DNA of 34,185 nt, filler included, from an uncultured Methanosarcinales archaeon (GCA_964385185.1; 17 parts of 17 records of this genome joined end to end with filler, not necessarily neighbours in it); one strand, 5' to 3'. Counted from the whole stretch's first letter, positions 125 through 11,807 are shown. Numbers and translations: made by a program. Notes: generated by a model from the letters alone, not told the origin.

Positions 125-574
125 TCACAATGTTACGAACTCCGTCTTCACCTGCTTAAACGACACTAAAGATTTGATTTTGACTACACCTTTTCTAGAA
201 ATAACATTCTTTACAAAATCATAATATGCATCTTGATCTTTAACTCTGACTTTCAAAACCATCTCCCAATCACCAGTACAAATATCAATACTTTCAATCT
301 GATGGTGTTTTGCCAGATCCTTACCAATTCTTTCAGGATTCCCATACTCATCTGGAGATAAACTTATCAGAACATAAGTACAGAATCCCTCATCAATTTT
401 CTTATAATCAAATACTGCTTTATAGGTTTTAATAGCTCCCTCTTTCTCTAACTTCTTAATGTTGTAGTGGATTGTGGTGGATGGCTCTTTTATCTTTTTA
501 GCTATCCTAGCTATCTGCGGGGTACAATTGCCTTCTTTAAACAATTTAACAAGTTTCTCAGTTATATTCTTCAT
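125..574 (-). CDS. Lrp/AsnC family transcriptional regulator
   Basis: N-terminal HTH (IARIAKKIKEPSTTIHYNIKKLEKEGAIKTYKAVFD) and C-terminal RAM domain with CTGDWEMVLKV; 149 aa. Confidence 0.93.
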   Translation of the reverse strand: MKNITEKLVKLFKEGNCTPQIARIAKKIKEPSTTIHYNIKKLEKEGAIKTYKAVFDYKKIDEGFCTYVLISLSPDEYGNPERIGKDLAKHHQIESIDICTGDWEMVLKVRVKDQDAYYDFVKNVISRKGVVKIKSLVSFKQVKTEFVTL

Positions 575-578
575 ATAA

Positions 579-648
579 ATTGAATAATATTCAATAATAT
601 ATAAATTTATCGCCCAATATTCGTACTTTATTCAATCAATTATATTAA
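579..648. promoter_or_regulatory. Divergent archaeal-type promoter region with palindromic operator
   Basis: Perfect palindrome ATTGAATA-A-TATTCAAT at 579-595 and a second TATTCAAT half-site at 629-636. TATA-like TTTATATA on the minus strand (598-605) and TTATATTAA on the plus strand (640-648). Confidence 0.6.
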
Positions 649-715
649 GATGGTACCACTTCTCTTATCTGAGATAAAATGAAAAATCAATCACTAGAGG
701 CTAAGGCACAAAATT

Positions 716-1573
716 GTGCTGGTCGTCGGTATCACAAGCAAAGAAGATTTAGCTAGATTTATCACTCAAGAGCCTTTAGTTGAGACTAAGCCGTCATTGG
801 CTGGAATTTCTCAAATATCAGAAGTAAATGCGCTATACTTTGGTGTTGGTCTCTGTAATGGAGTTCCTATGCTTAGTGCAGGTCTGCCCATTGATGTTCT
901 GAGCATGATTCTTAGCGGAGAACAGCTAGATGTACCAAAACATATCTTAGTTGCAGATACTCATGCGACAACTAACGGTTTTGATGCTCAATCGGTCGAT
1001 AAATTGGCTGGGCAATACCAAGAAATGTTTCAAAGAGTCGTAGAAAATCTAGGTTTTACTGGATGGCACGTTGTAAGAGCATCGGAAATAGATCAAACTC
1101 CTACTTACAGAGATCTTCTTAGCACTATAGAAGCCTCTCACGACTACATCAGAAGAGAATTGGCAGATATGCGTTGGTTCAATCACGAACATAATGTAAA
1201 TCTCAAAGTTGGCTGGGCTCTTAACGGAAGTAAGAATTCAGATGAAACATCATTTGACCAAGAATTCCAACGTCAATTTGAGGATCCTTTAGGATTTATC
1301 TACGTGATGCCCGGCAGGACTTTTGATCCCAAGAGGCTTCGCTCTGCTCCATACTTTTGCACAAATCCGGAAGAAAGAATCTTGCTCAAAGTAGATGAAA
1401 ATGTCGCGAATAAGATAGCTTCAGCTCAGGAACAATTTGGTCAACAGGCAACAAGACCATACGAGAAATTCCTTAGTCACGTAATTAGGCTATATGACAA
1501 AACTGTAGAGAGAACAGAACGAGGACCTATTGCAGGCAGATTACAACAAGTGATAGACAGGTGTACAAAATGA
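716..1573 (+). CDS. Class Ic aaRS catalytic-domain homolog (TyrRS/CDPS-like) without HIGH or KMSKS; start uncertain (GTG 716)
   Basis: Motifs in the expected order: ALYFGVGLC, HILVADTHATTN (cf. archaeal TyrRS IILLADLHAYLN), VVRASEIDQTPTYR (cf. AlbC SLSELQETPEYR), DYIRRELAD (YxxxE of CDPS, YxxxQxxD of TyrRS), NLKVGW. Reference sequences recalled from memory. Confidence 0.6.
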   Translation: MLVVGITSKEDLARFITQEPLVETKPSLAGISQISEVNALYFGVGLCNGVPMLSAGLPIDVLSMILSGEQLDVPKHILVADTHATTNGFDAQSVDKLAGQYQEMFQRVVENLGFTGWHVVRASEIDQTPTYRDLLSTIEASHDYIRRELADMRWFNHEHNVNLKVGWALNGSKNSDETSFDQEFQRQFEDPLGFIYVMPGRTFDPKRLRSAPYFCTNPEERILLKVDENVANKIASAQEQFGQQATRPYEKFLSHVIRLYDKTVERTERGPIAGRLQQVIDRCTK

Positions 1574-2271
1574 AAGAAAAAATCTTAGGAGTAATTGGAG
1601 GACTAGGACCTGAAACAGGATGTAAGTTTTGTCTAAATGTAAACCGGAAGTTCAAACCCATTACAAAAAGACAACCTCACATTTTACTAGATAATCTTCC
1701 AATCTCCCAAGAAGCAGAAGAACGCCTGATTAATGGAGGCCCATCTCAAGAACACCTGGACTTGTTGTTAGATTCAGTAAAACGCATGAATAATCTAAAT
1801 GTAGACTTAATAGTTATTGCCTGCAATACTGTTCACATCTTTATTGATGAACTTAGAGAAAAATCAACTGTTCCTATATTGAGTATCATAGAAGAAACAG
1901 CAAAAAAATGTAAAGACATGAACATTACAAAAGTTGGCATTCTTGGCTCTACCAAAACAATCAAGTCTGAGCTTCATGCCAACGAACTTCGCAAATGGAA
2001 TATTGAATCAATAACACCTGAGGATACTAGCCAACACTTTGTAAGTGAGTGTATTCTAAGAATTATCAACAACCAAGTTAAAGATAATGATAAAATACGA
2101 ATGATAAAAATAATAAAAAAACTTGAGAAAGTGGGAGCCAGGGGGATAATTTTAGGATGTACTGAATTACCCTTGTTAATTTCAGATCAAGACGCAAACA
2201 TACCAATAATCAACACTACTGAAATCTTAGAGGATTCTTCTATAAACAATTTAATTAACAAAATCAAATAA
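1570..2271 (+). CDS. Aspartate/glutamate racemase family protein (PLP-independent)
   Basis: GVIGGLGP at the N-terminus, both catalytic Cys motifs (IACNTVH, ILGCTELP) and GILGSTKT. ATG at 1570 overlaps the upstream TGA (ATGA). Confidence 0.93.
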   Translation: MKEKILGVIGGLGPETGCKFCLNVNRKFKPITKRQPHILLDNLPISQEAEERLINGGPSQEHLDLLLDSVKRMNNLNVDLIVIACNTVHIFIDELREKSTVPILSIIEETAKKCKDMNITKVGILGSTKTIKSELHANELRKWNIESITPEDTSQHFVSECILRIINNQVKDNDKIRMIKIIKKLEKVGARGIILGCTELPLLISDQDANIPIINTTEILEDSSINNLINKIK

Positions 2272-2452
2272 ATTTTCCTGCCCTAGGAAAGTAGTATCGC
2301 CATGTGGCTCAAAGAAAAGTGCTCCTTGCGTCATACGCTGCGTTCGCTTCGCTCACTTGGGGACGCTGCGCTTTCGTCGCTACGCTCCTCACCCTCGCTT
2401 AACAGCAACTATGCGGAAAGTCCCTCAGCTCGGGACATTTCCCAAATTGTTT
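2269..2452 (+). repeat. Structured non-coding element ending in the left half of an attC-like site
   Basis: Holds the reverse complements of three blocks at the contig's left end, two GNA-triloop hairpins on the bottom strand, GCTTAAC (RYYYAAC) at 2397-2403, and the hairpin GAAAGTCCC...GGGACATTTC. The contig breaks inside it. Confidence 0.6.
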
Positions 2453-2552
2453 NNNNNNNNNNNNNNNNNNNNNNNNNNNNNNNNNNNNNNNNNNNNTTAA
2501 TTAATTAANNNNNNNNNNNNNNNNNNNNNNNNNNNNNNNNNNNNNNNNNNNN
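2453..2552. other. Artificial contig linker (N44-TTAATTAATTAA-N44), first of 16
   Basis: The same 100-nt linker, with stops in all six frames, starts at 2453, 4965, 7369, 9772, 12055, 14283, 16495, 18545, 20492, 22386, 24190, 25990, 27669, 29325, 30952 and 32576. Confidence 0.99.
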
Positions 2553-2561
2553 ACAACAGGA

Positions 2562-2882
2562 ATGTGGGTTCCAAACTACATAACATCTTTATCGGAAACA
2601 TACAATCGAATTATGGAATCTCCAAGATTAGGAAAATGGATAAATCTTAGAGCAATCAATACAGAATTTCCAGATGGCTCAGATTTCCAACGAGTACAAG
2701 GTACGATAGCCCCTTTCCAAGGAAAGTACACAAAAGGATTTTTTGTTGGTGGAGCACACCAAAGCAACGCGAATACCGGATTAGATATAGGGTATCAAAT
2801 AAAAATTGGAAATCTAAACCTATACATTGAGCATGATCGAAGCATAAAAACTACAACATGTAATGCATCAATGAAATTCTAA
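2562..2882 (+). CDS. Hypothetical protein (possibly 5'-partial)
   Basis: 106-aa ORF at the contig start with no recognisable motif. Confidence 0.5.
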   Translation: MWVPNYITSLSETYNRIMESPRLGKWINLRAINTEFPDGSDFQRVQGTIAPFQGKYTKGFFVGGAHQSNANTGLDIGYQIKIGNLNLYIEHDRSIKTTTCNASMKF

Positions 2883-2973
2883 GAAAAGGAACGGCTCCCC
2901 ATCCATAGTCGTGGGGGGTGGTTTTAGAATGTAGGAAAGACGGAGAGCCGTAAGCGTGATACTGTGTGAGTTA

Positions 2974-3375
2974 TTACTTTTTCAACTTCAAGGTAGGCTT
3001 TCTCATTTCTTGGAGCCACATAAGCCCAAGTCTAATCATTTCTTTATTGAATCGTTCTGATATTCTATATGTCTTCTTATACAAATCATAATCAATCAAT
3101 CCCATACTTTTCAAAGGTGTTAATATCCGATCGTAAAATTGTCGTTTATTATAACTTAATTTTACTCGTTTACCTCTTACTTCCTCAATTTCGGTTTCAA
3201 AGATACCGTCATGCAACTGAGTAGCAAAAAAACTCATCTCAGTTTTAGTAATTTCACCTTCATTATTTTTTATATATTCGATGAGGGCTTCACCTACAAT
3301 TTTCTGCTGTTTAGTAGCAAAGACTACCTCAAATATGTTGTCCGGTAAATTAAACCGGTCGAACAACAATACCAT
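2974..3375 (-). CDS. Conserved-looking archaeal hypothetical protein, probable winged-helix
   Basis: QFYDRILTPLKSMGLIDYD...KTYRIS resembles a recognition helix plus wing. TATA-like TTTAAATA lies about 25 nt upstream. Confidence 0.6.
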   Translation of the reverse strand: MVLLFDRFNLPDNIFEVVFATKQQKIVGEALIEYIKNNEGEITKTEMSFFATQLHDGIFETEIEEVRGKRVKLSYNKRQFYDRILTPLKSMGLIDYDLYKKTYRISERFNKEMIRLGLMWLQEMRKPTLKLKK

Positions 3376-3443
3376 AAATCACTTTAGAGGAGAACTACTA
3401 TTTAAATATTACGATTATCGTTACTAGTATACATATTCCACAA

Positions 3444-3953
3444 CTAGAACTTGCCTTTATTCACTCCACAATAATATCCAATTAGATTAGTAACAATATG
3501 CAAAGCTCCATAGATTAGGATTCCATACATCCAATATCCAATACCCACCGGCTCCAAGAGTGACAACAATAACAAACTCCCCAGAATCCAATCAATCTGA
3601 TCCCAAGGCATCCAACTTGTCCCAGGAGCCCTACCAAACTGCCTCTTCACAAAACTCTCAACTAAATCTCCCAACAAACTGCCCAATCCTAACACAAGAC
3701 CCAAAACTACAAAGCCATATTCTTCATATCCAGGAAATACTCCCATCATTCTCTCTAAATACACAACTAATACAGCCACAAGTGTTCCAACAACTAAACC
3801 CTTCCAGGTTTTATTATCTCCAAACACTCTTTTTCCCCTAAACGAACTTCCAAAATCAACAGGAGTATTAAAGAATCGAAATTTCTTAAAGATTGACAAC
3901 ACCATATTACCTAATGCAGCCGGCAATAATAAAAAAAACACTTCTATGATCAT
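3444..3953 (-). CDS. carS: CDP-archaeol synthase (DUF46/CarS family)
   Basis: LPAALGNM, PVDFG...GKRVFGDNKTWKG, GDLVESFVKRQFG, and PWDQID motifs. Confidence 0.9.
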   Translation of the reverse strand: MIIEVFFLLLPAALGNMVLSIFKKFRFFNTPVDFGSSFRGKRVFGDNKTWKGLVVGTLVAVLVVYLERMMGVFPGYEEYGFVVLGLVLGLGSLLGDLVESFVKRQFGRAPGTSWMPWDQIDWILGSLLLLSLLEPVGIGYWMYGILIYGALHIVTNLIGYYCGVNKGKF

Positions 3954-4459
3954 TTACTCACACCTCGATAATATTGAATACTAACTACCACACTGAGAAA
4001 TGCAATTAGAAAACTAACGTAGTAAAAAGTATCAATATACGAAAATAATAATAAGATAAATCCTAACAATTGAAATCCTGTAATTACTTTACCAAGAAAA
4101 AGAGATTGAAAATTCGGTTTCTTCAATTTTCCTAAGGAAACATATAACATTCCAAGCAATTCTAACCATTCTCTCAGAAAAAAGATAAGAATCATCCATA
4201 ACGAAATCTCTTTAAGAAAAATAAATCCAATAACTACAATTGCCATACCTATCTTATCACATAGTCCGTCCAGGGCCCCTCCAAAATCTGAGGATACTTC
4301 AAATTTTCTCGCCAAATAACCATCTAAAATATCTGTTACTACGGAAAGAAAAATAAGAGCAATTACAATGGCAATATTTTCATGAAAATAAAGTACAAGC
4401 AATGCAAGTATAATTCTTGAAATCGGAAAAAAGGTTATAATACTATTAATTAATTTCAT
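3950..4459 (-). CDS. CDP-alcohol phosphatidyltransferase family protein
   Basis: Signature DxxDGxxAR...GxxLDxxxD (TDILDGYLARKFEVSSDFGGALDGLCDK). ATGA overlap with carS. Confidence 0.92.
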   Translation of the reverse strand: MKLINSIITFFPISRIILALLVLYFHENIAIVIALIFLSVVTDILDGYLARKFEVSSDFGGALDGLCDKIGMAIVVIGFIFLKEISLWMILIFFLREWLELLGMLYVSLGKLKKPNFQSLFLGKVITGFQLLGFILLLFSYIDTFYYVSFLIAFLSVVVSIQYYRGVSK

Positions 4460-4800
4460 TTGTTCATTTTCCTTTTGTATTTCATCTTAGTTCTATATTC
4501 ACTGTAGGTTATCCATCCACTAACTATTAATTCACGAAGATTAAGCGATTTTTTCTTAATAACATCCTTTCCATCTAACTCAAAATATAGTTCAACAAAC
4601 CCATTATCAGCACCATTTCTCAATAAACTACTTCCTGCTCCTTGCCCTGAAAACCCAAATAAAGCAAAGTCAATAGCCAACAATATAGTACTCTTACCAG
4701 ATCCAACATCTCCTGATAATAATAAACTACCTTCTAAAAAATCAAGTTCTTGATAAACATAACTTCTAATATTCTCTAATTTTATTTTCTTAAGAAGCAT
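4456..4800 (-). pseudogene. rad50: Rad50/SbcC ATPase, N-terminal part only (truncated or chimeric)
   Basis: MLLKKIKLENIRSY, Walker A SGDVGSGKSTIL, AIDFALFG. Similarity ends near residue 85; no coiled coil or Walker B follows. Confidence 0.75.
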
Positions 4801-5125: not shown

Positions 5126-5647
5126 TTATTTTTTTAATGCCTCTTCATATCTTTTAGATCTTTCTTCGATTCTTGTTCTGTAGTTAATTTGTTCTTTCTT
5201 AGGTTTAGCTTCTTCTATTTTTGCTTTTGTTTCTAAACTCCAAACCTTTTCTGATTCTTTCTTTGCATTATTATTAATTGTATTGTATTTTTGATTGGTT
5301 TGATTTACCTCGTTGTCGTAAACTTCTTCTGCCTTGTCAATTTGGTCTTGCATTAAACTCTCTAAACTGTAGCCTCTGTTCTCATCTCTTTCGAAAATTG
5401 TTCCATCTACTTGCGTGTATGTTAAGTCATTTAATGTTGAATCTTTTGAGCTATTATCGCTTGTTAAGAGATGTGTTCCAACAGCTAATCCTGATCCTAT
5501 TGCTATTGGGAGTATCGTTGATTTTGTTAAAGAATATAATTTAGAACCTGTCCATTTTGCTAGGTCTATTAGATAGTTGTCAAATACATTTATCTGAGTT
5601 CCACTTGATGGACTTTGTGATGCGTTTGAATCGTTTTGTTCTGCCAT
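5126..5647 (-). CDS. Hypothetical single-TM protein with charged helical C-terminus
   Basis: 173 aa with hydrophobic ILPIAIGSGLAVGTHLL; TTTATATA promoter-like element upstream. Confidence 0.65.
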   Translation of the reverse strand: MAEQNDSNASQSPSSGTQINVFDNYLIDLAKWTGSKLYSLTKSTILPIAIGSGLAVGTHLLTSDNSSKDSTLNDLTYTQVDGTIFERDENRGYSLESLMQDQIDKAEEVYDNEVNQTNQKYNTINNNAKKESEKVWSLETKAKIEEAKPKKEQINYRTRIEERSKRYEEALKK

Positions 5648-5777
5648 TTTATATTTTGTAGTAATTTTATAGTAGTAATTGGGTATATAAATGTTTCTAT
5701 TTTGATGGGTGTTTGTTGAGTTGATTAAATGAGTGGATGAAAGAAATCTTTATAAATGATAGATTGCTAAAAGGTTT

Positions 5778-6539
5778 ATGAAAAAGGTGTTTGGAAGTAG
5801 GTTGCAATCTTTGTTAATGTTATCTGTGTTGCTTTTGGTTTTGGTTCAGGCTTCTTTGGTTATTGCTCAAAAAGATGTTGGTGTTCCTGCCCCTGCTGAG
5901 ATAGTTGGGACCTCTAGTAATATTTTTGATCCAATTCGTAGTTTGTTTAGTGATTGGTCTGAGGGTAATGTGAGTCCTAATGTTGCTAAGTTTTTCTTTT
6001 TCTTTTTGCTTACTTTGTTGTTGTATTCGATTTTTGATACTACTGGTCTTGTAAATAGTCCAGGTATTAGATGGACTCTTTCGGCTGTTGTGGCCTTTTT
6101 ATCTACTGCTTTTATGGCTCAGTCGCAGGTCTGGTTATTAATTATTAGTTATGATGCGCTGGGTATGACTATATTGTCTTTGTTTCCTGTTGCTGTGCTT
6201 TGTTTTTATACATTTAGAGTTGCTTCTAGTGGTGGTCCTGGAGGGATTGTTATTCAATATGTTTCGTGGATAGTTTATTTGGTTTTTTTGATAGGATTCT
6301 TTGTTGCAGGAATGTTTAATGGAGCTGTTAGTTATTCTGATCCGTTTGCTTGGATTTATATTGTTGCTGTTGTTTTTTCTATATTAATGGTTATAGCCAA
6401 TAAACAGATAATTGAGTTTATTATTAATAAGTATATAGAGGCTCAAGGAGAAGCTGCTGGTAGGACTGCTGATCAGGTTGTTAATGCTGCTGATGCTATG
6501 AAGACTATTGCGGAAGGGCTTGGACATGGTAGAGGTTAA
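5778..6539 (+). CDS. Hypothetical multi-pass membrane protein with signal peptide
   Basis: N-terminal signal sequence and about 5 hydrophobic segments; CTTTATAAA upstream. Confidence 0.75.
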   Translation: MKKVFGSRLQSLLMLSVLLLVLVQASLVIAQKDVGVPAPAEIVGTSSNIFDPIRSLFSDWSEGNVSPNVAKFFFFFLLTLLLYSIFDTTGLVNSPGIRWTLSAVVAFLSTAFMAQSQVWLLIISYDALGMTILSLFPVAVLCFYTFRVASSGGPGGIVIQYVSWIVYLVFLIGFFVAGMFNGAVSYSDPFAWIYIVAVVFSILMVIANKQIIEFIINKYIEAQGEAAGRTADQVVNAADAMKTIAEGLGHGRG

Positions 6540-9998: not shown

Positions 9999-11807
9999 TT
10001 AAAAAGTAACTGTTGCGTCAACCATCATAGATGTGAACAGTAAAGCTAGATAGAGCAGTGAATAAAGGTATAATCGGCGCGCACTTTGTCTCGTTGTTGC
10101 CCTAAATACTTGTATTGCGTAAAAGAGAAAGATCGCCCCGAGCATGACAGCACTAGCGGCGTAAATCACGCCTATTACGCTTGTCGTTGCAAATAATATT
10201 GTTAATGTAACCAGGATTATGGAATGGCCCAATATTCCTTTAGCTGTTGCTTCTTCCCCGTATTCAACTGGGAGCATAGGAATCCCAGCTTTAGCATAGT
10301 CGTCCTTGATAAGTAGAGATAATGCCCAAAAATGTGGCGGTGTCCAAAAAAATACTATTCCGAATAGATAGAGGGATGGAAGTTCCAGTCCACCTGTTAT
10401 GGCAGCCCATCCGACCATAGGAGGCACAGCCCCGGCGGCGCCGCCTATCACTATGTTGTGTATGGAAGTTCTCTTTAACCAGGCTGTGTAAACGAGGACG
10501 TAAAAGATAGTTGCTCCGGCAACCAATGCGGCGCTTACAGGATTAACCCAGTAGAAAAGTACAATGAACGCAATTACATTTAGCGTTATGCCGAAATAGA
10601 GGGCATGATTTGGGGCAATGCGATTGCCAGGCAGAGGCCTATGACTGGTTCGGCTCATCTTGTCATCTATATCACGATCCAAATAGTGATTTATCGCGTT
10701 AGCGCCTCCGGCTCCAAGTGAGCCACCGATTATTACAAGCAAGGTTGTTAGAAGCGGTGGCACTCCGTTGGAGGCTAAAAACAATCCGCCTAGGGCAGTA
10801 ATGAGCAAAAGGACAATAATCATCGGTTTGGTTAGTGCTAAGTAATCCATTGCCGCTGCTTTGAAATTCATGTTGAACGAATTGGGTTTCACCAATGTTG
10901 CCAATATCACAAGATTGCCCCATTGAGCTGTCGCCAATGTCAAATGTGAAATACGCGACAAGGAAGAGAATCCGGTTAGAGGATTGGCGGCTCCAACTAT
11001 GACTTGGGATAATGAAATGGCGACCAAAAATGCCCCTGCGAGTCCAGTAAGCATCGACCGGCTCCGTTGTGACCAGGCAATGAGCCCTACTCCTATTCCT
11101 ACCAAAGTCGAAATCCCGGCAAGCATTCTATGGGACAAATGTAGCCATTCAAGGGAGATATCTGGCACTAGTGAGTTATTACATAGAGGCCAACTTGGGC
11201 ATATGGTGCCTGCTCCTTGGCCTACAGTGATAGACCCTGAAATTATCACTATTATCGTGATCACTGCACCCAATGTAGCCAAAAAGAAGATTCTGGGAAC
11301 GGGCTGCTTCGAGTTTGTGGAATCATGGTAAGTCCAAATTATGCCCACGATAAGTAGGGCAAAAATGATTTGCGCTGTTGTAAGGTGCAGAGTTCGAAAA
11401 TGAGGGTTGAGTTCGGTGAATACAGTCGCGCCTCCTAAGCCACCTGCCACTATTATTAAAAGCACAGTTGCCCAAAGTATGTTTTTTATTGGCCTGACCG
11501 AAGGCCGTATGAATGTTGCGAACAGTGCCGTTCCAATTACGAAAATACCCGTTAGGGTTGCAAGTAGTCTGTGGAAGTACTCAACCAAGCTGTGAAAGTC
11601 GAGAGGCGGTACTATTTTCCCATAACATAACGGCCAGTCAGGGCATCCCAACCCGGATCCGGTAACTCGTACGAGTGCTCCCACGGCAATTAGGAAAAAA
11701 ACGGTGGTTGCACAAACGGTGATGAGAATCAGCAATGGCGTACCGTGAAGATTGCTGTGCAACCCTTTTGCAGGGCCAGTGATATTCTTGTTGGCCATAA
11801 CCTTCAA
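9999..11807 (-). CDS. ctaB: Heme A synthase (CtaA/COX15) fused to protoheme IX farnesyltransferase (CtaB/CyoE)
   Basis: N-half: GSGLGCPDWPLC, EYFHRL, CPSWPLC, HLSHR. C-half: LTKP, NHYLDRDIDDKMSRTSHRPLP, YTAWLKR, FFWTPPHFWAL, DDYAKAGIPMLP. The start may be ATG 11798. Confidence 0.95.
   Translation of the reverse strand: MKVMANKNITGPAKGLHSNLHGTPLLILITVCATTVFFLIAVGALVRVTGSGLGCPDWPLCYGKIVPPLDFHSLVEYFHRLLATLTGIFVIGTALFATFIRPSVRPIKNILWATVLLIIVAGGLGGATVFTELNPHFRTLHLTTAQIIFALLIVGIIWTYHDSTNSKQPVPRIFFLATLGAVITIIVIISGSITVGQGAGTICPSWPLCNNSLVPDISLEWLHLSHRMLAGISTLVGIGVGLIAWSQRSRSMLTGLAGAFLVAISLSQVIVGAANPLTGFSSLSRISHLTLATAQWGNLVILATLVKPNSFNMNFKAAAMDYLALTKPMIIVLLLITALGGLFLASNGVPPLLTTLLVIIGGSLGAGGANAINHYLDRDIDDKMSRTSHRPLPGNRIAPNHALYFGITLNVIAFIVLFYWVNPVSAALVAGATIFYVLVYTAWLKRTSIHNIVIGGAAGAVPPMVGWAAITGGLELPSLYLFGIVFFWTPPHFWALSLLIKDDYAKAGIPMLPVEYGEEATAKGILGHSIILVTLTILFATTSVIGVIYAASAVMLGAIFLFYAIQVFRATTRQSARRLYLYSLLYLALLFTSMMVDATVTF

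Follow-up and report, generated by a model that had tools for sequence, protein, structure and literature searches.

Paralogues of aminoacyl-tRNA synthetases (aaRSs) that have given up aminoacylation have repeatedly proved to be new biology, examples being the cyclodipeptide synthases (CDPSs), HisZ, editing factors and pseudo-dimers. HisZ, SLIMP and the HisRS-like domain of GCN2 do not aminoacylate, keep ligand or tRNA binding and have another enzyme as their partner. To our knowledge, all three are of class II, none is derived from tyrosyl-tRNA synthetase (TyrRS), and none is known with a racemase as its partner. Here we describe a TyrRS-like protein devoid of the ATP-binding motifs, encoded in a three-gene module in a stretch of DNA of 34,185 nucleotides (records of one genome joined end to end with filler, in the following termed the window) from an uncultured Methanosarcinales archaeon (GCA_964385185.1). 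Its gene, termed the middle gene, lies between a divergent gene for a regulator of the Lrp/AsnC type (feast/famine regulatory proteins, FFRPs) and a gene for a two-cysteine racemase that is independent of pyridoxal phosphate (PLP) (Table 1).

The CDPSs (AlbC, Rv2275; PF16715) have a class-Ic-like Rossmann fold, have lost both ATP motifs and retain the G, Y and E residues of the pocket, and the middle protein shares all of these features. In the extract of PMC3105412 used here, G35, Y178 and E182 of AlbC superpose on G34, Y151 and Q155 of M. jannaschii TyrRS, the Ser that becomes acylated in CDPSs follows the conserved Gly at a distance of two residues (AlbC G35-x-S37), and a C-terminal domain is absent. 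A second parallel is the double-length TyrRS of trypanosomatids (3P0J, 5USF), which according to extracts of PMC9437257 and PMC5370408 consists of a working TyrRS and a motif-less TyrRS-like half; at least three members of the family described here are likewise joined to a TyrRS. Unlike the trypanosomatid half, the family domain is old, has invariant residues of its own, is mostly free-standing and was fused repeatedly and in both orders. The TrpRS-A/ORF1 pairs of the candidate phyla radiation (CPR) and of DPANN archaea are a different protein, as far as the extract of PMC5370408 describes them.

For the arrangement of the genes, the closest precedent is the DARP (PH0140)-BAR-transporter cluster, in which an archaeal FFRP/Lrp gene is likewise found beside a racemase gene. 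According to the extract of PMC13628549, DARP, an FFRP of P. horikoshii, represses this racemase-transporter cluster when L-Ile is the effector and lifts the repression in response to D-allo-Ile, a precedent for the ability of archaeal FFRPs to distinguish L- from D-amino acids. In contrast to the module, BAR is PLP-dependent and the cluster has no aaRS-like gene. The D-aminoacyl-tRNA deacylases DTD1/DTD2 and the free-standing editing protein AlaX resemble the middle protein solely in the role that we propose below, in which D-Tyr would be removed from tRNA either in trans or, where the protein is fused to the synthetase, in cis; their folds are unrelated, so that the analogy is functional only. 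A study on the activation of D-amino acids by aaRSs (PMC6765224) appears to be another of the nearest published items. No description of the family or of the module was found in a literature search that left subscription journals mostly outside its coverage, in keeping with a preliminary description of the locus, made from the sequence, which knew of no described system with this combination of genes.

Fold and homology of the middle protein

An AlphaFold (AF2) model of the middle protein, for which an alignment with 28 relatives was used as input, reached a predicted local distance difference test (pLDDT) score of 92.3 and a predicted template modelling (pTM) score of 0.91. The 50 best Foldseek matches in the Protein Data Bank (PDB) were without exception TyrRSs or engineered versions of M. 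jannaschii TyrRS, with E-values from 1.2e-8 and TM-scores of 0.45-0.62 over 256-352 columns; CDPSs were absent from these 50. The matches included the C-terminal helical domain, to which helices 230-284 of the model correspond as a TyrRS-type domain. The family profile matched 116 of 120 archaeal-type TyrRSs, colinear from the N-terminus, with per-sequence E-values below 0.01 (best 5.4e-9), and an hhalign comparison with 22 archaeal-type TyrRSs yielded a probability of 83% (E 9.1e-6, 195 columns). On the basis of sequence profiles and the modelled fold, the middle protein is a paralogue of archaeal TyrRS (class Ic).

The middle protein matched no Pfam family at E<=1, PF00579 and PF16715 included, and scored 15.1 bits with the archaeal TyrRS model NF006330 (cut-off 220). 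A single-sequence search of the PDB had no match, and a profile search of the PDB sequences found weak TyrRS matches only (E 0.3). The leads from the ESM Atlas all remained below 0.9, among them one cluster with 24% CDPS (0.86) and one with 53% DIT1_PvcA (0.86). By word index, 57 relatives were retrieved, all 'hypothetical' or unnamed and some of them from Woesearchaeota; longer, fused relatives were not found in this way, which is weak evidence for a search of this type. PADLOC assigned neither of the two enzymes to a defence family.

Motifs kept and lost

Apart from the fold of the whole chain, the middle protein has in common with TyrRS (PF00579) the ADxHA motif, present as ADTHA, and probably the patterns Y-x-G and Y-x3-[QE]-x2-D of the tyrosine pocket along with the GxDQ Asp. 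In contrast to TyrRS, it lacks the HIGH His and the KMSKS Lys as well as a helix of the connective region, has a longer loop after strand 1, carries Glu in place of both Gln residues of the pocket, and displays additional invariant residues (K164, W167, D181, Y213 and R221). Three alignments placed M52-L53-S54-A55, with no His, at the position of HIGH. Family members differ at position 52 (A, E, Q, M, S and others) and have S or T at position 54, whereas the first His of HIGH (H42) is invariant in the 22 TyrRSs. The KMSKS position is taken by G200-R-T-F-D, which hhalign aligned with G-x-K-M-S, and the lysine is lost. We counted conservation over 203 domain rows, which comprise many close relatives, so that the counts are not independent. 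In these rows, the loop at the KMSKS position has G200 in 195, a basic residue one position ahead of that of the lysine (R/K201) in 177, which might act as a substitute, and R/K207 in 154. Because the ATP-binding motifs HIGH and KMSKS are lost, the protein cannot, judged by its sequence, adenylate and thus activate an amino acid. The suggestion in the preliminary description that a D-amino acid is aminoacylated by the module, for which adenylation would be required, is thereby not borne out.

The tyrosine pocket presents a different picture. M. jannaschii TyrRS holds tyrosine via Y32, G34, Y151, Q155, D158 and Q173, as given in the extract of PMC3105412. The residues of the middle protein that likely map to this pocket, as judged from alignment and model, are Y41, G43, D81, Y144, E148, D151 and D176-E177. 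The spacing of Y41-x-G43 and Y144-x3-E148-x2-D151 equals that of Y32-x-G34 and Y151-x3-Q155-x2-D158, and D176-E177 is located at the start of the helix that follows the Y144 helix. When family members and TyrRSs were aligned jointly with MAFFT, Y144 fell on a Tyr column of TyrRS, D151 on an Asp, G166 on a Gly and D176 on an Asp column. The order of elements is also seen in the model of a natural fusion of the family domain to TyrRS (P0106, see below), where a helix with Y182, E186 and D189 precedes an LKIGW strand in the family domain, and a helix with Y525, Q529 and D532 precedes an IQLGG strand in the TyrRS half; the latter has one additional preceding helix (502-513) without a counterpart in the family domain.

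Near-invariant in the family are G43, G45, P58, D60, A80, D81, H83, A84, S123, Y144 (200 of 203 rows), D151, K164, G166, W167, D176, E177, F180, D181, Y196, G200, P212, Y213 and R221. Position 148 is Glu in 142 and Gln in 58 rows, and E177 is present in every row that covers it. In the middle protein both pocket glutamines of TyrRS are thus glutamates (E148 and E177), as in the CDPSs, and these two changes would create an acidic pocket suited to an ester or an amine, not to a free carboxylate. Positions 41, 148 and 151 were further seen to co-vary, with W-Q-Q in 6 and M-Q-D in 8 of the 203 rows, a pattern that suggests subfamilies with different side-chain specificity.

The preliminary description had classified the gene product as aaRS/CDPS-like, and the first half of this label is upheld by the TyrRS fold and homology. 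The second half is not, since membership in the CDPSs is ruled out by several features taken together: the position of the catalytic Ser is held by G45 (Gly in 188 of the 203 rows, the remainder being gaps), PF16715 does not match, a C-terminal helical domain of the tRNA-binding type is present, and the 50 best matches of the fold ranking are all TyrRSs. The Y-x3-E pair typical of CDPSs (AlbC Y178 and E182) does occur, as Y144 and position 148.

Family size and fusions to TyrRS

A profile search of 1.84 billion representative sequences, with clusters formed at 50% identity, returned 539 clusters from archaea and bacteria at E<=0.001, of which 415 remained at E<=1e-10 and 237 at E<=1e-30. This apparently makes the family a widespread and undescribed group of TyrRS paralogues for which no curated model exists. 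In the 30 clusters for which names were looked up, the three fusions described below are named 'tyrosyl-tRNA synthetase' and the rest 'hypothetical protein' or not at all; the taxa named include Parachlamydiales and Haliangiales. Woesearchaeota also encode an ordinary TyrRS, one instance being P0227 (E 8.8e-85 in comparison with human TyrRS). In a tblastn search of plasmids with one bacterial member, no match was obtained.

Fusions were sought among the best 150 of the 539 clusters, and four of these exceed 500 amino acids (aa). P0069 (756 aa) consists of a bacterial-type TyrRS followed by the family domain, P0074 (796 aa) of the family domain followed by a bacterial-type TyrRS, and P0106 (705 aa) of the family domain followed by an archaeal-type TyrRS; in P0082 (581 aa), a GNAT domain (PF13480) precedes the family domain. 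The TyrRS halves of the first three are genuine PF00579 members, and the fused family domains retain all residues that are invariant in the family. A FastTree phylogeny was computed from the 175 rows, out of 203, that have 230 or more match columns; in it, P0069 and P0074 fall into one sub-clade among free-standing members despite their opposite domain order, and P0106 belongs to a distant clade, beside the free-standing P0091. The sequences thus indicate at least two, and probably three, independent fusions to TyrRS. Repeated fusion to TyrRS, in a family whose homology is TyrRS-specific, points to tyrosine or tyrosyl-tRNA as the ligand and not to amino acids generally. With at least 539 clusters, the family is not an oddity of a single genome; its members probably retain a TyrRS-type pocket, and it has been joined to TyrRS at least twice.

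Conservation of the module

The genomes of GTDB species were scanned once with an alignment of 17 middle-protein sequences; 35 stretches matched, and 10 of them were confirmed as relatives (L001 to L010), with middle-protein identities of 45-90%. A racemase gene directly follows the middle gene in 9 of the 10 loci (10 of 11 with the window). The preliminary description had named rarity of this neighbourhood as an outcome that would speak against a functional module, and the opposite was found. In L010, the racemase is replaced by a HisC-like class I/II (fold-type-I) aminotransferase. The lrp gene is upstream and divergent in 8 of the 10 loci, the exceptions being L005 and L010; the interval between lrp and the middle gene contains one inserted open reading frame (ORF) in L004 and two in L009. 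In all 11 sequences the middle gene ends with ATGA, as the preliminary description had noted for the window; this same tetranucleotide starts the racemase gene in 9 of 11 and the aminotransferase gene in 1 of 11, and in L007 the racemase ORF begins further downstream.

The genes on the outer flanks are different in every locus, and the core is retained down to 45% identity of the middle protein and 33% of the racemase. Since the loci were found via the middle protein alone and yet keep racemase and Lrp while the flanks vary, the module is more than a chance arrangement, and the three-gene unit of the preliminary description can be regarded as conserved. The divergence of the middle protein and that of the racemase are correlated (r 0.83; 36 pairs with shared phylogeny that are not independent). 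The regulator, with a mean identity of 0.73 versus 0.55 for the enzymes, does not follow them in its divergence (r 0.27). Its identity is 66-85% in seven loci, and L009 has a fragment of 72 residues at 71%.

Single cases of suggestive neighbours were a gene for DTD2, a D-aminoacyl-tRNA deacylase, immediately behind that of the racemase (L008, 7598-8398), one for an AlaXM-like tRNA-editing protein 1.3 kb upstream and beyond lrp (L007, 3670-4401), and one for an aromatic amino-acid hydroxylase downstream of the module (L002). Together with the HisC-like aminotransferase, such sporadic neighbours are in line with a theme of tyrosine or tRNA. L004 has, between lrp and the TyrRS-like gene, an ORF of 230 aa (5254-5946, plus strand) that matches GNAT weakly (FR47, E 0.007); considered along with the fusion P0082, it raises the possibility that the family has GNAT enzymes as a second recurrent partner. 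The middle gene of L006 (6001-6857; 86-91% identical) is broken by a frameshift in the vicinity of residue 160, so that it is a pseudogene unless the assembly is in error.

Table 1. Features of the lrp-middle gene-racemase module, with positions in the window
Feature	Position	Strand	Remarks
lrp	125-574	-	Transcription regulator of the Lrp/AsnC (FFRP) type, 149 aa
Palindrome TGAATAATATTCA (box 1), candidate operator for Lrp	581-593		13 bp, perfect 6-1-6, 7 nt from lrp start
A+T-rich TATA-like stretch between the boxes, candidate lrp promoter	594-610	-	From sequence and aligned spacers; putative promoter
Second, degenerate box region (AATATTC..TTATTCAA)	611-639		Conserved in the window, L001, L006 and L002; putative
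TATA-like box TTATATTAAGA, candidate promoter for the operon of both enzymes	640-650	+	Similar words at matching place in 8 loci; putative
Conserved 5' leader AGAGGCTAAGGCAC and hairpin GCAC-N6-GUGC enclosing the GTG start	696-719	+	Conserved non-coding sequence
Middle gene, TyrRS-like paralogue without HIGH/KMSKS	716-1573	+	285 aa, GTG start
ATGA stop/start overlap of middle gene and racemase gene	1570-1573	+	Candidate translational coupling, read from the sequence
Racemase, PLP-independent, two-Cys (C85, C197)	1570-2271	+	233 aa

The racemase

The racemase was recognised by PF01177 (131.8 bits, cut-off 31; E 3.9e-38) and TIGR00035 (161.9 bits, cut-off 93.1), and its closest solved structure is the aspartate racemase of P. 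horikoshii (1JFL, E 1.7e-31). C85 (IACNT) and C197 (GCTE) align with both Cys motifs of 1JFL, the first of which carries Ala in the mutant entry 2DX7, and neither varies in any of the 10 module racemases. These data agree with the preliminary description, in which the enzyme was addressed as a two-Cys racemase that keeps both catalytic cysteines. The substrate is another matter. Arg48 and Lys164 of the P. horikoshii enzyme, which presumably bind the side-chain carboxylate, are replaced by A49 and an Asn, and E50 is invariant among the module racemases. None of the equivalog models was matched above its cut-off, the CuyB equivalog scoring 140.7 bits (cut-off 190). Because of these replacements and the missed equivalog cut-offs, specificity for aspartate is doubtful, and the module enzyme is, from its sequence, probably not an aspartate racemase. 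By analogy, racemases of the PLP-independent type can accept tyrosine: RacX, a member of the same superfamily, racemises 15 of 17 amino acids tested, with a kcat/Km of 94.5 s-1 mM-1 for L-Tyr, according to the extract of PMC12838360.

The Lrp regulator and the shared regulatory DNA

The regulator has a RAM domain (PF01037, residues 68-141, 44.6 bits, cut-off 25), and its N-terminal helix-turn-helix (HTH) is weak by the HTH_24 model (17.7 bits, cut-off 21.9). The equivalog models for Lrp, LrpA and LysM match over the full length below their thresholds; these matches and the alignments with FL11 cover residues 3-141. Its closest solved structures are FL11 (PH1519, E 3.1e-13) and DARP (PH0140, E 2.2e-7). 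The assignment to Lrp in the preliminary description is thus corroborated, as is the divergent arrangement across about 140 nt with a palindrome, the spacer measuring 141 nt (575-715) and containing the perfect palindrome of Table 1.

The palindrome recurs, exactly or with one mismatch, at the matching site in L001, L006 and L007, and related boxes occur in L002, L003, L004, L008 and L009, so that all nine spacers examined have the palindrome or a close variant beside the lrp start. In L003 and L007, an exact second box of the TGAATA[AT]AATTCA type is found about 40 nt from the first. Within the window, the exact palindrome is unique to this site, and versions with up to two mismatches are not over-represented (5 found, 3.7 expected). 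We consider it a candidate operator because its position is conserved across loci, not because of its word frequency. It presumably resembles the 13-bp binding site of FL11.

The 5' leader is conserved in L001, L006, L004 and L009 and as a variant in L002 despite being non-coding, even in loci whose middle protein is just 45-59% identical. The hairpin that encloses the GTG start has a folding energy of -12.1 kcal/mol (z -1.5, not significant alone); in L009, where one arm is GUAC, the pair is retained as G-U. This hairpin could be a translational control element. When positions 540-780 were compared with Rfam, at most a chance-level snoRNA match resulted.

Proposed function and alternatives

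The absence of adenylation, the acidified TyrRS-type pocket, and the ties to TyrRS by fusion and to amino-acid-interconverting enzymes by operon structure together constrain the function of the middle protein. Our tentative proposal, which we hold to be possible rather than probable, is that of an ATP-independent TyrRS paralogue that handles a tyrosyl moiety (Tyr-tRNA or tyrosine) beside TyrRS, accompanied by a racemase for D/L-tyrosine and an FL11-like Lrp. As Glu replaces the pocket Gln at E148 and E177, the ligand would be either a tyrosyl ester, of which the 3' end of Tyr-tRNA(Tyr) is an example, or tyrosine that has no free negative charge near these two residues. The paralogue would work alongside TyrRS and, in the archaeal clade, would be made in fixed proportion to the racemase owing to the ATGA overlap. 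It may capture or release the tyrosyl group, for instance from D-Tyr-tRNA, and the racemase would interconvert D- and L-tyrosine, with only L-Tyr re-entering charging. The overall role would be chirality control or salvage of tyrosine, tuned to the amino-acid supply by binding of the FL11-like Lrp to the palindromes of the spacer. The ligand, the catalysis, the racemase substrate and the regulation are all inferred. A more far-reaching version, which we regard as doubtful, is that the middle protein founds a widespread TyrRS-derived, ATP-independent class that acts on Tyr-tRNA(Tyr) as a proofreader or transferase, in trans or, when fused, in cis, and that it forms with the racemase a recycling loop for D-/L-tyrosine in DPANN archaea. 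If the family acts on Tyr-tRNA, it would be a new player in chirality control or in the non-ribosomal use of charged tRNA, and the module bears on the question of how genome-reduced DPANN archaea handle scavenged D-amino acids.

Several observations weigh against this proposal. A second D-Tyr-tRNA deacylase looks redundant in L008, where DTD2 is already encoded, and the fold-type-I aminotransferase of L010 fits a supply of L-tyrosine better than a disposal of D-Tyr. The isoelectric point (pI) of the middle protein is 5.45 overall, with residues 226-285 alone being basic (pI 8.99), and an acidic pI is unlike what is expected of a strong tRNA binder. With respect to the pocket, Y41 is confined to part of the family (113 of 203 rows, with F in another 45), and hhalign put helix 143-158 on another TyrRS helix, at low confidence; owing to this disagreement, the mapping of Y144, E148 and D151 rests on MAFFT, spacing and structural order. 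In the AF2 model of the fusion P0106, the domains are good (pLDDT 82.3), yet pTM is 0.53 and the two halves are not arranged as in a TyrRS dimer; a comparison with the double-length TyrRS of Leishmania gave a TM-score of 0.31 and a root mean square deviation of about 20 A. A TyrRS-like pseudo-dimer packing of P0106 is thus unsupported by this model, though not refuted. Finally, the gene context covers one clade only, namely the 10 loci and the window.

A rather unlikely alternative is a new aminoacyl-tRNA-dependent synthase or transferase, which would transfer the tyrosyl group of Tyr-tRNA(Tyr) onto an acceptor, with the racemase supplying or tailoring a D-residue. This comes close to the idea in the preliminary description of a D-residue-containing (cyclo)dipeptide, with a mechanism other than the acyl-serine of CDPSs, and a product of the module that contains a D-residue is possible. 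The loss of the ATP motifs with retention of the aminoacyl pocket would be in line with such an activity, as would Glu at position 148, which matches the essential E182 of AlbC where TyrRS has Gln. The GNAT/Fem superfamily includes aminoacyl-tRNA transferases, which lends interest to the fusion of P0082 to a GNAT domain (PF13480) and to the weakly GNAT-like ORF of L004 (FR47, E 0.007). Fusion to TyrRS would channel Tyr-tRNA, and some members belong to bacteria with large genomes, such as Haliangiales. However, a conserved nucleophile is missing, with Gly at the Ser position and C47 variable (C 113, S 27, A 16 and T 13 of 203 rows). Genes that would form or tailor an acceptor are not conserved around the module, and DPANN genomes are small and rarely encode secondary metabolism.

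The middle protein might also be a non-catalytic sensor or adaptor, which would bind tyrosine or uncharged tRNA(Tyr) and regulate the racemase, aminotransferase, GNAT enzyme or TyrRS with which it is paired; we consider this unlikely. HisZ regulates HisG in such a manner, and a synthetase is likewise regulated by SLIMP or, in the case of the Leishmania TyrRS, by its degenerate half. The catalytic motifs are lost and the ligand pocket is kept, and a constant domain is combined with changing partners: racemase in 10 and aminotransferase in 1 of 11 sequences, TyrRS in fusions of at least three clusters and GNAT in at least one. Stop/start overlaps are typical of subunits of one complex, and racemase, HisC-like aminotransferase and aromatic hydroxylase could each yield L-Tyr from a different precursor. 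On the other hand, D60, K164, W167, E177, D181, Y196, Y213 and R221 are conserved (182-199 of 203 rows) without a counterpart in TyrRS, which has the appearance of an active site more than of a scaffold. The two Gln-to-Glu changes would presumably repel the carboxylate of free tyrosine, and the fusion model showed no TyrRS-like dimer. A sensor of this kind would be the first class I counterpart of HisZ.

It is very unlikely that the middle protein is a highly divergent but working aaRS, or an amino-acid:carrier ligase, that uses ATP to activate a D-amino acid supplied by the racemase, with R201, R207 and R209 substituting for KMSKS. The loop that corresponds to KMSKS is indeed conserved and basic (see the counts for G200, R/K201 and R/K207 above), and D176 stands at the position of the GxDQ Asp of TyrRS, which we take to bind the ribose. 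The variable residue where TyrRS has the invariant HIGH His and the lack of a PF00579 match at E<=1 argue against it, and Woesearchaeota possess an ordinary TyrRS (P0227). Adjacency of the three genes by descent alone, with no shared function, is highly improbable: although all 10 loci belong to one archaeal order-level group, so that the synteny is possibly inherited, and the better conserved Lrp (0.73 versus 0.55) does not track the enzymes (r 0.27), the core is kept down to 45% and 33% identity while all flanks differ, the ATGA overlap occurs in 11 of 11 sequences and the operator boxes are retained. The module offers a compact and testable entry point, with three small genes, a defined candidate operator and two soluble enzymes.

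Setting of the module in the window

Elsewhere in the window, we found genes for a CDP-archaeol synthase, a CDP-alcohol phosphatidyltransferase and TrmB regulators. The CDP-archaeol synthase, and relatives named Woesearchaeota or Nanoarchaeota, support the archaeal origin that the preliminary description had suggested. Scanning the window detected neither tRNA genes nor Rfam families at the gathering score. A run of 44 N at 2453-2496, a scaffold gap, begins about 180 nt past the racemase gene, and the ORF at 2302-2508 that spans it is an artefact.

In L001, whose contig carries the label 'archaeon', an ORF of 439 aa (2185-3504, minus strand) with sigma-70 regions 2, 3 and 4 lies at a distance of 2 kb from the module, which suggests a transferred bacterial gene or a chimeric contig. 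In the window, an ORF of 114 aa (4456-4800, minus strand) covers no more of an SMC/Rad50-type ATPase than its N-terminal portion with the P-loop and looks like a truncated or split gene. A single ORF of 602 aa (9999-11807, minus strand) combines a COX15/CtaA domain with a UbiA prenyltransferase domain; possibly, heme A synthase and heme O synthase are fused in it, which would be unexpected for an archaeon of the DPANN type.

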